A stretch of 56,272 nucleotides of DNA, taken from NCBI GenBank assembly GCA_043812055.1, contig JBDRMN010000014.1, positions 1 to 56,272 of the forward strand. Reading direction: 5' to 3'. Positions 600 to 2,951 of this stretch are shown piece after piece. This DNA is from Patescibacteria group bacterium. GTDB taxonomy: Bacteria; Patescibacteriota; Gracilibacteria; JAHISY01. The translations under genes and the position numbers were made by a program. The stretch's first letter is position 1. Every line of letters begins with the position of its first letter. The notes beneath the pieces are model-generated. The model was not told the DNA's origin, made no database searches, and saw nothing but the letters and a program-made list of their open reading frames with translations.

Positions 600-2951
600 T
601 TACTTCGCAAACCTACTCACCTTCTCTCCTACAACTTTCGCATAATCCGCGTATTGCATTTTGATTGATTTTGTCCGGGAACCGGCGTTGAAATTGATCT
701 CGGTGTTTGCCGCGAGGGATTTTTCGACGAAAACCGGCAGGCCAAAAATATTTCCAAAGGGCGGCACAGCCCCTCTCTCACAACCGGTAACGGCCTTCAC
801 TTCTTCGAGCGTAGCCAATTCGAGCTCTCTCACTCCGGCAACTTCTTTCAACGCACCCTCATCCACCTCTCGGACTCCGGAGCAAACTGATTGAATATAG
901 CCATTCTCTGTTTTCCATACCAAAGCTCTCGCACCTTGTTCGAGCTTGCTTCCACGCACCTCGGCGGCCTCTTCGGAAGTTTTCACAGGCTCGTGATCGA
1001 GGACCTCGAATTTAATTTCCTTCTCATTCAAAAGCCTCTCAATTTCGGCGAACACATCGCGCTCTGCGGTAGGCTGCGCAGTCGAAACGATCTCGAGTTC
1101 CTTCAATTGTTCGGCCGGTACGATATCCGGAGCTCCGAGCATGAGATCTTCGGCGCGGTTGGTTTTGGGGAAGGCGATCACTTCACGGATATTCGGTTCT
1201 CCGGCGAAAATCATCGCGATACGATCGAGTCCCCAGGCGATGCCGCCGTGGGGGGGAGCACCATAGCTGAAGGCCCGCAGGATGTGGCCAAATCTGCGTT
1301 CGGCATCCCGATCGCTGATTTTCAAAATATCAAAAATCTTTTTTTGCAGTGTCCTCTCGTGAATTCGTATTGAACCACCGCCAATTTCATAACCGTTCAA
1401 AACTACGTCGTAGGCTTCCGCGCGGGCTTTTAGCGGATCCGAATCAAGCAGCGCATGATCTTCTTTTTTTGGTCGAGTGAAAGGATGGTGCACGGCTCCG
1501 ACTTCTCCCGTCTCTGCATCTTTTTCAAACATCGGGAAGTCGGTGATCCAACAATAGGCGAACTCGTTTTCTTTGCCCTCTAATAGTTTCAACTTTTTTG
1601 CGACGGCGATCCGCACTGCGCCGAGGCTCTCACACGCCACCCGCCATTCATCCGCGGCAAAGAACAGAATATCTCCAGATTCAGCCTTACATTTAGTGGA
1701 AATCTTTTGGGTCAATTTTTCGCCTAATTTTGAAACAGGAACTCCTTCGAAAGAAAGAGCTTTTTCTGTTCCCTGTTCCCCTGCCTGCGCCAAGGCTTCC
1801 ACCTTCGCCCTTCGGGCTTCGGTGGACAAGTCGGCAGGCAAGCTGGCACCTGTTCCCTGTATTTTGATCCAGGCTAGTCCTTTCGCTCCGTAGATACTGG
1901 CGACCTTTTCAAGGGCTTCGATATCTTTACGCGAGAATACTGCGCCGCCCGGAACTTTCAGAACTTTAATTTTGCCTCCACTCTTCACCACGTCGGCGAA
2001 AATACCAAAACCGCAACCTTTACATTCCTTACTTACGTCCACAATCTCGAGCTCGTAGCGTAAATCGGGAGAATCATTCCCGAATTTATCCAGGGCCTGT
2101 TGGTAAGTGAAACGCGGGAACTTACCGGCTTTGAGCTTCACATCCGGCCGACACTCTTTGGTAATTGTTTTGAGAGCCTTTTCATTTATCCGAATCACGT
2201 CTTCGGCATCCACGAAACTCATTTCCAGATCCATCTGGGTGAATTCCGGTTGGCGGTCACCGCGCTGGTCTTCATCACGGAAGCAGCGGGCAATCTGCAT
2301 GTAGCGATCGAAGCCCGCCACCTGGCTGAGTTGCTTCAACTGCTGGGGAGACTGGGGCAACACGTAAAACTTCCCCGGATGGACTCGCGAGGGCACGATG
2401 TATTCCCGCGCACCTTCCGGAGTTCCCTTGATCAGGATCGGAGTTTCGATTTCCACAAAATCGTTTTTGTAAAAGAATTTACGCACAGCCTGCCAAATCC
2501 GGTGGTGGAGCACCATGTTCCGCTGCATTCGCTTGCGGCGCAGATCGAGATAACGGTACTGCAGGCGCACCTCTTCATTTTCGTCATGCTCTTCCGCAAT
2601 TTCGAATGGGGGAGTCTGGGACTCGTTGAGGATCTTTACCTCGCCAACGAGGATCTCAATCTCGCCGGTAGTCATTTTTTTATTCTCCTGACCGGTTGGA
2701 CGAGCGCGCACTTTGCCAATAATTTGCAGAACCCATTCGGGTCGCACAGTTTCGAAAGTTTTATGGGCGTCACCCGAAAGCTCGGGATCAGTCACGATTT
2801 GCGTCACTCCAAAACGGTCGCGTAGATCGATAAAAATTAAACTACCATGATCACGGCGACGATCAACCCAGCCTGTTAACGTTACTTCAGCACCCTCGGC
2901 TTTGCCGGTGAGATCGTTGCAAGTATGCGTACGGTAAGCGGTTTTATACAT
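600..2951 (-). CDS. aspS: aspartate--tRNA ligase with a C-terminal YbaK/ProX-like extension
   Basis: Track ORF 600..3014. The ATG at 2951 gives MYKTAYRTHTCNDL, a typical AspRS N-terminus. Hallmarks: OB-fold segment GWVDRRRDHGSLIFIDLRD, class II motif region CFRDEDQRGDRQPEFTQMD, GGGSIRIH, and AFPKT near the normal C-terminus. About 162 further residues follow (603-1088). Confidence 0.95.
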   Translation of the reverse strand: MYKTAYRTHTCNDLTGKAEGAEVTLTGWVDRRRDHGSLIFIDLRDRFGVTQIVTDPELSGDAHKTFETVRPEWVLQIIGKVRARPTGQENKKMTTGEIEILVGEVKILNESQTPPFEIAEEHDENEEVRLQYRYLDLRRKRMQRNMVLHHRIWQAVRKFFYKNDFVEIETPILIKGTPEGAREYIVPSRVHPGKFYVLPQSPQQLKQLSQVAGFDRYMQIARCFRDEDQRGDRQPEFTQMDLEMSFVDAEDVIRINEKALKTITKECRPDVKLKAGKFPRFTYQQALDKFGNDSPDLRYELEIVDVSKECKGCGFGIFADVVKSGGKIKVLKVPGGAVFSRKDIEALEKVASIYGAKGLAWIKIQGTGASLPADLSTEARRAKVEALAQAGEQGTEKALSFEGVPVSKLGEKLTQKISTKCKAESGDILFFAADEWRVACESLGAVRIAVAKKLKLLEGKENEFAYCWITDFPMFEKDAETGEVGAVHHPFTRPKKEDHALLDSDPLKARAEAYDVVLNGYEIGGGSIRIHERTLQKKIFDILKISDRDAERRFGHILRAFSYGAPPHGGIAWGLDRIAMIFAGEPNIREVIAFPKTNRAEDLMLGAPDIVPAEQLKELEIVSTAQPTAERDVFAEIERLLNEKEIKFEVLDHEPVKTSEEAAEVRGSKLEQGARALVWKTENGYIQSVCSGVREVDEGALKEVAGVRELELATLEEVKAVTGCERGAVPPFGNIFGLPVFVEKSLAANTEINFNAGSRTKSIKMQYADYAKVVGEKVSRFAK

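Follow-up and report, generated by a model that had tools for sequence, protein, structure and literature searches.

The gene for aspartyl-tRNA synthetase (AspRS) in the analyzed stretch of a Patescibacteria group bacterium (contig JBDRMN010000014.1, 56,272 nucleotides; the whole stretch is called the window here) continues in frame into an editing domain of the INS/YbaK superfamily. A complete bacterial-type AspRS, a tether, and a C-terminal editing domain are almost certainly parts of one polypeptide. The best overall explanation, to which we assign a probability of about 0.45, is that the appended domain is an AspRS-tethered deacylase that guards the boundary between Asp and Asn. Neither an AspRS with a YbaK/INS-like domain nor a hydrolytic safeguard for the Asn transamidation pathway was found described in the literature searched (full text for the former).

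Architecture of the fused gene

The gene and its parts are located as follows (window positions).

600..2951, minus strand: aspS::edit, whole gene; 783 codons and the TAA stop codon at 600-602; the database copy (P0270, 783 aa) is 100% identical
2628..2885, minus strand: anticodon-binding OB fold, residues 23-108 (Pfam PF01336), bearing His35 and Gly87
1161..2579, minus strand: class II catalytic core, residues 125-597, with the GAD domain inserted (Pfam PF00152, E 1.8e-114)
1623..2000, minus strand: GAD insertion domain, residues 318-443 (Pfam PF02938)
1056..1163, minus strand: AspRS C-terminal tail and linker, residues 597-632; low-confidence tether between two folded modules
603..1055, minus strand: INS/YbaK-superfamily editing domain, residues 633-783 (Pfam match, AF2 model, Foldseek, and profile search)
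927..929, minus strand: codon AGA of Arg675, which stands where the superfamily has its conserved Lys (read from the sequence)
759..773, minus strand: GXXXP loop, G727-A-V-P-P731, followed by an invariant F-G; invariant columns G113, P116, P117, F118, and G119

The ORF listing gives 600..3014 on the minus strand, opened by an upstream TTG; the gene is placed at 600-2951 because homologues begin with MYKTAYRTH. A convergent ORF (254-595) ends next to it, with 4 nt separating both stop codons. The original prediction, made from the letters of the DNA, was that AspRS is fused to an editing-type domain through an in-frame extension of about 162 aa. The fusion is confirmed, as a single uninterrupted ORF matches both the tRNA_edit and the aspS profiles. 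Window positions 603-1088 encode residues 622-783, which agree exactly with the extension quoted at the time, and reading of the ORF and the sequence revealed no stop codon and no change of frame there; nor does any stop codon separate AspRS from the domain in the window sequence. The synthetase also ends where it had been placed, because the NCBIfam aspS model, 590 positions long, is exhausted at residue 624. Checked for Met starts only, the window protein has none at the beginning of the domain or immediately ahead of it.

Judging by the structural models, the tether of about 35 residues that joins the two modules is flexible. In the full-length model, residues 597-611 and 625-629 have pLDDT values below 50 and the whole-protein pTM is 0.65; this AF2 output consists of pLDDT and pTM only, so that inter-domain geometry is not readable from it. 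In the model of the domain alone, the first 13 residues likewise have a pLDDT below 50.

The synthetase

Two equivalog models for bacterial-type AspRS are passed, i.e., NF001750 (aspS; 798.1 bits vs a cut-off of 443) and TIGR00459 (711.8 vs 373.85). Identity as the bifunctional AspRS/GatC protein (NF009460) was rejected, since the score of 526.8 bits is far under the cut-off of 1379 and the AspRS part alone aligns. The GAD domain holds an insert of 32 residues (368-399, window 1755-1850) that the alignment shows to be missing in fused relatives.

For the anticodon domain, the best match in the PDB is the Asp/Asn enzyme of Pseudomonas aeruginosa (4wj3), and the window protein was aligned residue by residue to this enzyme, 1c0a, and 1efw. 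The motifs RRRDH35G and RPTG87Q of the window AspRS have RRRDHG and RPEGA as their counterparts in 4wj3; at positions 35 and 87, the discriminating AspRS of E. coli has Leu and Lys, and AspRS1 of T. thermophilus has Leu and a gap. All of 40 Peribacteraceae AspRS have His35, and at least 90% of them have Gly87. In 2006, Bernard and coworkers reportedly found these two residues to matter for tRNA(Asn) recognition. Based on the His/Gly pair common with the P. aeruginosa enzyme, the window AspRS is probably of the non-discriminating type.

The editing domain

The Pfam model tRNA_edit (PF04073) matches residues 653-772 (window 636-995) over profile positions 1-122 of 123, and with 95.9 bits (cut-off 25.5; E 2.4e-27), the score is far past chance. 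The AF2 model of the domain is confident (pLDDT 90.7, pTM 0.82). It was matched by Foldseek with a probability of 1.0 and TM scores of 0.75-0.90 to 2cx5, 3op6, 1wdv, 1dbu, 1vki, and the ProRS INS domain; the scores for T. thermophilus ProX (2cx5) are 0.81/0.87, and YbaK and ProXp-ala were also matched at probability 1.0. Both the profile match and the superposition on YbaK/ProX structures thus bear out the predicted fold.

The label "YbaK/ProX-like" holds at the level of the superfamily but not closer. Identity as YbaK was rejected because the cut-offs of the YbaK equivalog TIGR00011 (53.0 bits with the full protein, 57.7 with the domain alone, vs 153.25) and of PRK10670 (17 bits vs 243) are missed by a wide margin. 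The nearest relative is lpg1207 of Legionella pneumophila (PDB 3OP6), which is found with E-values of 2.3e-19 by the single sequence and 1.7e-33 by the family profile and scores about twice as high as any other family: the profile gives 119 bits on 3op6, 46-48 on YbaK and INS, 43 on the ProXp-ala structures 5vxb and 1vki, and 20 on 8huz. The single-sequence query gave no match at E 0.01 to the ProXp-ala structures of C. crescentus (5VXB), A. tumefaciens (1VKI), and human (8HUZ). On these sequence comparisons, the clade is lpg1207-like within the INS/YbaK superfamily; it is not YbaK and probably not ProXp-ala. In the literature searched, no paper mentioning the structure 3OP6 was found; lpg1207 may be one of the uncharacterized ProXp-7, -8, or -9 clusters.

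All 18 family-invariant columns and the GXXXP loop are kept in the window domain, and fused relatives share 63-82% identity in the domain and 75-85% in their AspRS cores. Every motif that the original prediction had listed is present, with the correction that the basic residue in its "basic residue-x-L-V" strand is Arg675, where the family has Lys. The catalytic Lys that was to be looked for is thus replaced in the window lineage. In H. influenzae YbaK, the counterpart of the family Lys is the Lys of FKTLL. All 61 free-standing homologues have the family Lys, as do the DPANN fusions linked to gatCAB. Arg takes its place in 12 of 123 domains, and each of these 12, which form two clusters, is a Peregrinibacteria-like fusion. 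Counts of Lys-to-Arg changes, fusions, and losses are approximate, because both trees were built by neighbor joining from BLOSUM distances and carry no support values. The superfamily Lys and the GXXXP loop have been described as stabilizing the aminoacyl-tRNA, with the Lys not doing chemistry (PMC11286415), and for this reason Arg675 probably retains the substrate-stabilizing role of Lys.

Distribution of the fusion

The same fusion is found in seven relatives with 69-81% identity (NCBI, JGI, ENA, and Logan data). Peribacteraceae AspRS that are 72-77% identical to that of the window do not have the domain and lie in the same aspS-GGDEF-DHH-S6 neighborhood. Because these enzymes are equally close, the domain must have been gained or lost cleanly. 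It also appears dispensable, because it comes and goes cleanly among close AspRS and no core residue clearly tracks its presence: no residue of the AspRS core separates fused from plain enzymes in the near clade, and only two do so, weakly, overall.

When the best 80 family loci were taken from species-representative genomes, 27 proved to be AspRS fusions, a fraction that is inflated because the loci were picked by similarity to a fused domain. In six, the domain has a gene of its own shortly after aspS, either right behind it (five loci) or past an intervening MBL-fold gene (one locus); about 47 are free-standing without aspS nearby. AspRS is the only synthetase found as a fusion partner among these 80 loci. 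The fused AspRS represent three scaffolds (two bacterial ones, with and without GAD, and an archaeal type) and occur in both CPR bacteria and DPANN archaea. Many genomes, related and unrelated, carry the fusion, and none of the outcomes named beforehand as speaking against the original prediction occurred. In some relatives (P0351 and P0378), the motifs are degraded.

That two genes were merged through a missed stop codon or a frameshift has a negligible probability. Some public records do call the C-terminal 129-168 aa alone as a "YbaK/EbsC family protein," but the DNA of these records is one uninterrupted ORF, the window protein has no Met start for the domain alone, and the fusion recurs across NCBI, JGI, ENA, and Logan data and in the 27 species-representative genomes. 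An assembly or annotation artifact was therefore rejected. A query with the C-terminal part alone missed full-length fused relatives, which the full-length query recovered; because of this, lists from the C-terminal query say nothing on whether free-standing copies are absent from Peribacteraceae.

Gene neighborhoods and the Asn-tRNA pathway

Genes of the Asn-tRNA pathway, which the original prediction had drawn attention to, are found beside DPANN relatives and are missing in the window and the Peribacteraceae loci. In two loci (L048 and L031), the order is aspS::edit-gatC-gatA-gatB; in L048, the gat genes overlap by 4 nt and are preceded by a 9-nt gap ahead of gatC. Altogether, 10 DPANN fused loci have a gatC downstream in the same orientation. 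Furthermore, the orders aspS-edit-asnS (L058) and aspS-edit-tRNA-Asn-asnS (L050) occur, the latter being the only case of a tRNA-Asn gene among the tRNA genes beside fused loci. Where flanking genes of fused or split loci were identified, gatCAB, asnS, and tRNA-Asn were seen and proS was not. This synteny is confined to DPANN relatives, which are about 48% identical. Within the 56-kb window, there is no gatCAB, asnS, tRNA-Asn, proS, or dtd, and the Peribacteraceae loci have no gatC, gatA, or gatB by tblastn, no asnS, and none of them among the called genes.

Free-standing homologues were found without a synthetase nearby (P0041) or without aspS, gat, or asnS nearby (P0402 and P0407). An AlaRS gene lies about 1 kb downstream of P0407.

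A proposed safeguard at the Asp/Asn boundary

We propose a role in post-transfer deacylation for the appended domain. As the domain itself lacks a part for anticodon binding, AspRS would serve as its tRNA-binding platform, and the domain would act on the tRNAs that AspRS holds, i.e., tRNA-Asp and tRNA-Asn. A non-discriminating AspRS is expected to let go of Asp-tRNA(Asn) much more slowly than of Asp-tRNA(Asp). Because of this slow release, Asp-tRNA(Asn) that lingers on the enzyme could swing its CCA end into the tethered editing site, where it would be hydrolyzed unless GatCAB amidates it first. The domain would then act as a hydrolytic safety valve that discriminates by residence time and not by reading the amino acid. 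That it is a working deacylase coupled to AspRS-bound tRNA seems fairly probable; Asp-tRNA(Asn) as its specific substrate is a tentative assignment. The earlier guess that the domain polices Asp-tRNA(Asn) gains independent support from the gatCAB, asnS, and tRNA-Asn neighbors in relatives and from the non-discriminating-type anticodon signature, while the substrate still has the status of a proposal. The broader idea that CPR bacteria and DPANN archaea built hydrolytic proofreading into AspRS, such that lingering unamidated Asp-tRNA(Asn) is chosen by residence time and destroyed, is similarly tentative. The Arg-for-Lys lineage may be a tuned, slower variant.

The identity and conservation of the domain, the tether, the coupling to AspRS, the neighbors from the Asn pathway, and the type of the AspRS argue for the boundary guard, at the probability given at the outset. 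Against it, hydrolysis of an obligatory intermediate has a cost in ATP and puts the domain in competition with GatCAB; the window itself has no gatCAB, asnS, or tRNA-Asn, with synteny in DPANN only; and, on sequence grounds, the domain seems dispensable, has lost its Lys in the window lineage, and belongs to a family of which about 47 of 80 loci are free-standing.

Several other readings have to be weighed. The domain might be a generic trans-editing factor that is fused to AspRS for co-expression or stability and clears the errors of other synthetases (e.g., Ala-tRNA(Pro) or Abu-, Ser-, and Thr-tRNAs). JGI names many free-standing homologues "Ala-tRNA(Pro) deacylase" (a KEGG-derived name), the characterized INS members named in the literature searched edit ProRS errors or have a broad tRNA range (PMC11295145), ProX/ProXp-x (2cx5) is among the structural neighbors, most family members are free-standing, and loss of the domain leaves the AspRS core unchanged. 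The family profile nevertheless prefers lpg1207 far above ProXp-ala, YbaK, and INS, and the single-sequence query falls short of ProXp-ala. Moreover, AspRS, on three different scaffolds, is the sole fusion partner seen, split genes directly follow aspS, and the identified neighbors are those of Asn-tRNA synthesis without proS, which makes this reading improbable. A different proposal keeps the tie to AspRS, which both fusion and gene neighbors support, and has the domain proofread tRNA-Asp by removing D-Asp, Asn, or an analogue attached by AspRS while chemically rejecting L-Asp. E. coli AspRS esterifies D-Asp to tRNA-Asp, with charging that reaches 20%, and the resulting D-Asp-tRNA-Asp serves as a natural substrate of a deacylase (PMC1807948). 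Classical editing domains also discriminate by amino acid, and aspS-edit-asnS operons occur where free Asn must be present. To our knowledge, however, no YbaK-fold enzyme performs chiral proofreading, and fused AspRS cores show no relaxed-specificity substitutions relative to plain relatives. As this proposal would also leave the gatCAB operons and the adjacent tRNA-Asn gene unexplained, we consider it unlikely.

The replacement of Lys in the 12 related fusions, forming two clusters, could mean that at least the Arg675 lineage carries a non-hydrolytic module, which binds the aminoacylated CCA end and retains or hands over Asp-tRNA(Asn) as a transamidosome accessory, or adds tRNA affinity. A C-terminal fusion of AspRS to a transamidation partner has a precedent in AspRS-GatC, gatCAB operons occur in relatives, and transamidosomes depend on the retention of Asp-tRNA(Asn) (PMC3367201). 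The rest of the site is intact, though, with its 18 invariant columns and GXXXP loop, the fusions that are actually linked to gatCAB keep Lys, and the change to Arg is conservative and could also allow stabilization of the substrate; the reading is accordingly given a low probability. Lower still, at the level of very unlikely, we place a decaying remnant en route to loss that has no function in the window lineage. Repeated clean losses in close relatives, the replaced Lys, degraded motifs in P0351 and P0378, and a domain that evolves faster than the AspRS core would fit such decay, but the domain identity among fused relatives, the retention of all family-invariant residues, the conservation of Arg itself across 12 sequences, and a confident model (pLDDT about 90) speak against it.

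Comparison with known systems

[quoted passage not shown] The fold and the GXXXP loop are shared, and in those systems editing is post-transfer and the synthetase body supplies tRNA binding. Unlike them, the window protein has AspRS as a partner, carries the domain C-terminally on a flexible tether and not as an insertion or at the N terminus, has Arg for Lys, and belongs to a family nearer to lpg1207 (119 bits) than to INS (46) or ProXp-ala (43). With lpg1207, the nearest solved relative by sequence (32% identity in the structural alignment), it has GAxPPFG and FNAG in common; lpg1207, an uncharacterized protein, differs in being free-standing, in keeping Lys, and in not having the VRG arginine of the family. 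YbaK, ProXp-ala, and ProXp-x (T. thermophilus ProX, 2CX5) share the fold (TM 0.75-0.9) and the Lys and GXXXP positions. An anticodon-binding part is absent from both YbaK and the window domain; YbaK becomes specific by forming a complex with its synthetase. The substrates of these free-standing enzymes are ProRS errors or Abu, whereas the genomic partners of the window family are AspRS, gatCAB, and asnS.

The Asn-transamidosome and the AspRS-GatC protein (NF009460) likewise tie AspRS physically or genetically to factors for Asp-tRNA(Asn), with the AspRS C terminus as the fusion point and, in DPANN, gatCAB operons that adjoin the fused gene; the domain appended in the window is, however, a hydrolase-type editing fold and not an amidotransferase subunit. 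The fold of DTD is unrelated to that of YbaK. DTD is comparable as a deacylase that acts on an AspRS product, D-Asp-tRNA-Asp, but was a free-standing enzyme in the assays (PMC1807948).

Implications

AspRS is generally regarded as needing no editing, and the boundary guard, if true, would be the first case of editing by this synthetase. Protection of the indirect Asn pathway is thought to consist of transamidosome channeling and rejection by EF-Tu only; a further safeguard would then stand beside them. Public annotation hides the architecture, as records name the protein simply "aspartate--tRNA ligase" or call its tail alone. The natural Lys-to-Arg variant concerns the very residue that defines the INS/YbaK superfamily, of which the large uncharacterized lpg1207-like clade gains a likely function or, failing that, a partner. 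With a recurrent fusion to AspRS on three scaffolds in two domains of life, together with the operons, hydrolytic quality control between Asp and Asn becomes a testable question.

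Gene and domain architecture

In the ORF listing of the window, the minus-strand ORF that encodes the aspartyl-tRNA synthetase (AspRS) spans 600..3014 when counted from an upstream TTG. As the homologues all start at a counterpart of MYKTAYRTH and the protein is 783 aa long in the database (P0270), the gene, here called aspS::edit, was set at 600-2951. It is composed as follows:

600-2951, minus strand: aspS::edit gene, TAA stop at 600-602
Residues 23-108, minus strand: OB anticodon-binding domain (Pfam)
Residues 125-597, minus strand: class II core (Pfam, E 1.8e-114)
Residues 318-443, minus strand: GAD insertion (Pfam)
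Residues 653-772, minus strand: tRNA_edit, PF04073 (Pfam, 95.9 bits, cut-off 25.5, E 2.4e-27, 122/123 profile positions)

The 590 positions of the NCBIfam bacterial aspS equivalog (798 bits vs a cut-off of 443) are exhausted by residue 624. The original prediction of a same-frame extension at 603-1088 was borne out, as this stretch encodes residues 622-783 with no stop or shift inside, and the proposed tRNA_edit match is nearly full-length. The full-length model (pLDDT 83.8, pTM 0.65) contains two confident modules with low-confidence segments between them (597-611 and 625-629), which is consistent with AspRS and edit modules joined by a flexible tether.

The GAD domain carries a 32-residue insert (GASLPADLSTEARRAKVEALAQAGEQGTEKAL; window 1755-1850, minus strand, residues 368-399), which is missing in every fused relative and is modelled with a pLDDT of only 53-57. 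Inserts of unrelated sequence occupy this position in two plain relatives (P0278 and P0280), making it an insertion hot spot.

Other features of the window include:

254-595 and 12617-13801, plus strand: ORFs without Pfam match
3401-4276, 4396-4824, 18710-19492 and 34831-36198, minus strand: ORFs without Pfam match (113-455 aa on both strands)
28833-30299: CysRS gene, adjoining a PP-loop (TilS-like) gene
53660-54295, minus strand: ORF of 211 aa with a weak procyclic acidic repeat family match, far under the cut-off; probably a low-complexity acidic repeat protein

The 260-aa ORF at 18710-19492 is flanked by the genes of EF-Ts and of ribosomal protein S2. Biosynthesis genes are numerous in the window for a CPR genome (argininosuccinate synthase, MTHFR, type I dehydroquinase, shikimate dehydrogenase, adenylosuccinate synthetase, SAICAR synthetase, AIR carboxylase, and IGP dehydratase). 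It also holds four tRNA genes (Met, Val, Glu, and Thr).

Fold and family of the edit domain

The edit domain was modelled separately (residues 615-783, aligned to 61 free-standing homologues), yielding a pLDDT of 90.7 and a pTM of 0.82 with the first 13 residues disordered. When this model was compared with the PDB using Foldseek, YbaK-fold proteins alone were found at probability 1.0. The matches include Thermus thermophilus ProX (2cx5, TM 0.81/0.87), Legionella lpg1207 (3op6, 32% identity), APE2540, YbaK of Haemophilus influenzae and Escherichia coli, ProXp-ala (1vki, 1vjf, 9bu5), and the INS domain of several ProRS. The domain had been predicted to be YbaK/ProX-like, which holds for the fold but not for the sequence, by which it appears to belong to none of the characterised families. 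YbaK identity was ruled out by 53-58 bits on the YbaK equivalog, whose cut-off is 153. With the family profile, lpg1207 scored 119 bits, followed by APE2540 (59), TTHA1699 (58), YbaK (48), INS (46), and ProXp-ala (43). Judged by sequence, the edit domain is a member of an lpg1207-like clade of the INS superfamily, for which no function has been reported. The JGI name "Ala-tRNA(Pro) deacylase" on many members is an automatic label that the profile comparison does not support.

All 18 invariant columns of the 62-sequence alignment are conserved in the window domain, including a GXXXP loop (G727-A-V-P-P731) followed by F-G. The anticipated catalytic lysine is replaced: residue 675 is Arg, encoded by AGA (window 927-929, minus strand), a single transition from AAA. 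This column, Lys in 61/61 free-standing homologues, corresponds to the FKTLL Lys of H. influenzae YbaK. The recurrence of Arg in 12 of 123 domains (Lys in the other 111) rules out a sequencing error; the 12 belong without exception to Peregrinibacteria-like fusions, found in two clusters of a neighbour-joining tree.

Fused and plain AspRS among relatives

Going by the names of the closest AspRS, the window belongs to a Candidatus Peribacteraceae genome (Peregrinibacteria, CPR). The same fusion was found in seven relatives of 749-754 aa (69-81% identity), drawn from NCBI, JGI, ENA, and Logan data, and in seven further ones at 49-55% identity; it is no artefact. Across fused relatives the edit domain is 63-82% identical to that of the window vs 75-85% for the AspRS cores, and is therefore conserved yet faster-evolving. 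Plain AspRS (588-622 aa, no edit domain) reach 72-77% identity, and fused and plain proteins are interleaved in the AspRS-core tree. The order aspS, GGDEF (convergent), DHH, S6 is common to a fused (P0276) and a plain (P0278) locus, while another plain locus (P0284) shares only aspS and the convergent GGDEF gene. The plain loci contain no separate edit gene, with 36-84 nt from the aspS end to the GGDEF gene. Given the interleaving and these clean loci, the domain is dispensable, and its gain or loss has been clean. No AspRS-core residues were found to track its presence in the fused vs plain comparison.

In a word-indexed protein search, a query of only the C-terminal part missed all of the full-length fused relatives (63-82% identical there), which the full-length query did return, so that sub-sequence negatives from such searches need care. 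An 828-aa Peribacteraceae-like AspRS (P0279, 74% identical over the AspRS part) ends in another kind of extension, ~210 residues long and without recorded Pfam domain; the AspRS C terminus in this clade seems to take various appendages.

Distribution and annotation

With the last 300 residues as query against 1.84 billion representative proteins, ~15 clusters matched across the AspRS/edit junction, including GAD-less AspRS fusions (~625 aa) and one archaeal-type fusion (P0157, 602 aa). The family alignment was furthermore scanned against one genome per GTDB species, and the ORFs at the best 80 loci, a sample biased toward relatives of the fused query, were read individually:

Fused to AspRS, 27/80
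Bacterial-type with GAD, 16/27: records titled Nanoarchaeota, Nanoarchaeia, Woesearchaeota, and several "uncultured Methanosarcinales"
Bacterial-type without GAD, 6/27: Torokbacteria, Roizmanbacteria, Gottesmanbacteria, Microgenomates, and two "uncultured Gammaproteobacteria" records
Archaeal-type, 3/27: CPR3, Roizmanbacteria, and one "uncultured Gammaproteobacteria" record
Cut by contig end, scaffold not readable, 2/27: L030 (Chisholmbacteria) and L064 (bacterium)
Split, separate edit gene downstream of aspS, 6/80: directly in L016 (2-nt gap), L065 (4-nt overlap; archaeal-type "aspartate-tRNA(Asn) ligase", 529 bits), L037, L050, and L058; one gene between in L046
Unlinked, free-standing with no aspS nearby, ~47/80: Rokubacteria/Methylomirabilota, Planctomycetes, Aenigmatarchaeota, Micrarchaeota, and others

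No synthetase other than AspRS was seen as fusion partner at these 80 loci. Despite the sample bias, it is difficult to account for the occurrence on three unrelated AspRS scaffolds and in split operons unless the edit domain is functionally linked to AspRS. Fused domains fall into three groups of the edit-domain tree, apart from the free-standing ones, which suggests a few fusion events plus transfer, also between CPR and DPANN. One unlinked member (L088 4001-8280, Nanoarchaeota) lies ~1 kb upstream of a same-strand AlaRS gene (tRNA-synt_2c and tRNA_SAD), a proximity that may be due to chance.

Public databases name the fused proteins "aspartate--tRNA ligase"; in some records the gene call is limited to the final 129-168 residues, labelled "YbaK/EbsC family protein", despite a continuous ORF. 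Uninterrupted aspS::edit ORFs of 744-762 codons are present at L005 (2251-4491), L085 (3150-5390), and L086 (2213-4456). The gene lists of L085 and L086 contain only the last 129-151 residues (NCBI product "YbaK/EbsC family protein"), leaving a ~1.8-kb empty gap over the AspRS part; the candidate NCBI counterpart at L005 is a 133-aa protein (P0411). Such tail-only gene calling hides the fusion.

Gene neighbourhood and AspRS specificity

The neighbours of the edit domain point to asparaginyl-tRNA formation. Representative loci are:

L048: aspS::edit 2291-4504, gatC 4513-4797, gatA 4794-6080, gatB 6077-7462, asnS 7784-8500
L031 (2279-8154): aspS::edit, Ham1, gatC, gatA, gatB (Pfam)
L058: aspS-edit-asnS (asnS 493.5 bits, cut-off 414)
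L050 (Nanoarchaeia): aspS-edit-tRNA-Asn(GTT)-asnS, tRNA gene at 1646-1721 between the free-standing edit gene and asnS

In L048, the gat genes have 4-nt overlaps and gatC starts 9 nt after the aspS::edit stop. Ten DPANN fused loci have gatC and gatA on the same strand further downstream, namely nine of the 16 from the scan (L048, L031, L007, L009, L022, L023, L027, L045, L047) and L086, and asnS follows in five of the six split loci. As read from the sequence, the tRNA-Asn of L050 has G1-C72 and discriminator G73. Neither gatC nor asnS was found beside unlinked edit genes, and gatCAB, asnS, and tRNA-Asn are absent from the 56-kb window and from the surroundings of the Peribacteraceae relatives' loci. 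The DPANN arrangement itself (Nanoarchaeota and Woesearchaeota records), a bacterial-type GAD-bearing AspRS in a gatCAB operon and in one case also with asnS, appears to be an Asn-tRNA cassette in common with CPR bacteria that has moved horizontally.

The closest match to the anticodon-binding domain of the window AspRS is the P. aeruginosa Asp/Asn enzyme (4wj3, 112 bits), whose RRRDHG and RPEGA align with the window's RRRDH35G and RPTG87Q. At these positions, the discriminating E. coli AspRS has RRRDLG and RDEKN, and T. thermophilus AspRS1 has RRRDLG and a two-residue gap. His35 is shared by all of 40 Peribacteraceae AspRS, whether fused or plain, and Gly87 by at least 90% of them. We take these residues to be the equivalents of P. 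aeruginosa H31 and G83, which reportedly, in 2006 work by Bernard and colleagues, contribute to tRNA(Asn) recognition. From these motifs, the window AspRS looks non-discriminating.

Proposed function

What the analysis establishes is the architecture and fold, the kept site with Arg in place of Lys, the tether, and the coupling in genomes to AspRS and to Asn-tRNA genes. From this we infer that the edit domain acts as a post-transfer deacylase for which AspRS supplies the tRNA binding, similar to YbaK, which according to PMC3367201 (citing An and Musier-Forsyth) clears Cys-tRNA(Pro) in complex with ProRS and tRNA(Pro). The likeliest substrate would be Asp-tRNA(Asn), to which we assign a probability of about 0.35. 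The same source states that non-discriminating AspRS releases Asp-tRNA(Asn) much slower than Asp-tRNA(Asp), giving GatCAB time to act. A tethered hydrolytic site could exploit this slow release, so that lingering, un-amidated Asp-tRNA(Asn) would be destroyed without any need to read the tRNA.

Other roles appear less probable. Proofreading of the amino acid on tRNA-Asp, for which it speaks that E. coli AspRS charges D-Asp (PMC1807948), is unlikely, and we consider it equally unlikely that a generic trans-editing factor, of a family with many unlinked members, hitch-hikes on AspRS; the neighbours identified at fused and split loci point to asparaginyl-tRNA formation. A non-hydrolytic CCA-end binder or transamidosome accessory, conceivable especially in the Arg lineage, is slightly more doubtful still. 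A conservative Lys-to-Arg exchange that is fixed in an otherwise intact site speaks for a site that works and has perhaps been retuned, and against decay; a decaying remnant is very improbable.

Full-text literature searches did not turn up any AspRS described as carrying a YbaK/INS-like domain; an earlier mention may exist in connection with the uncharacterised clusters ProXp-7, -8, and -9. If Asp-tRNA(Asn) is the substrate, the activity would, in AsnRS-containing genomes, erase AspRS cross-charging of tRNA(Asn). We rate the finding as a known editing fold joined to a synthetase partner that is new for it, in a pathway context that is also new, and with the signature lysine naturally substituted.
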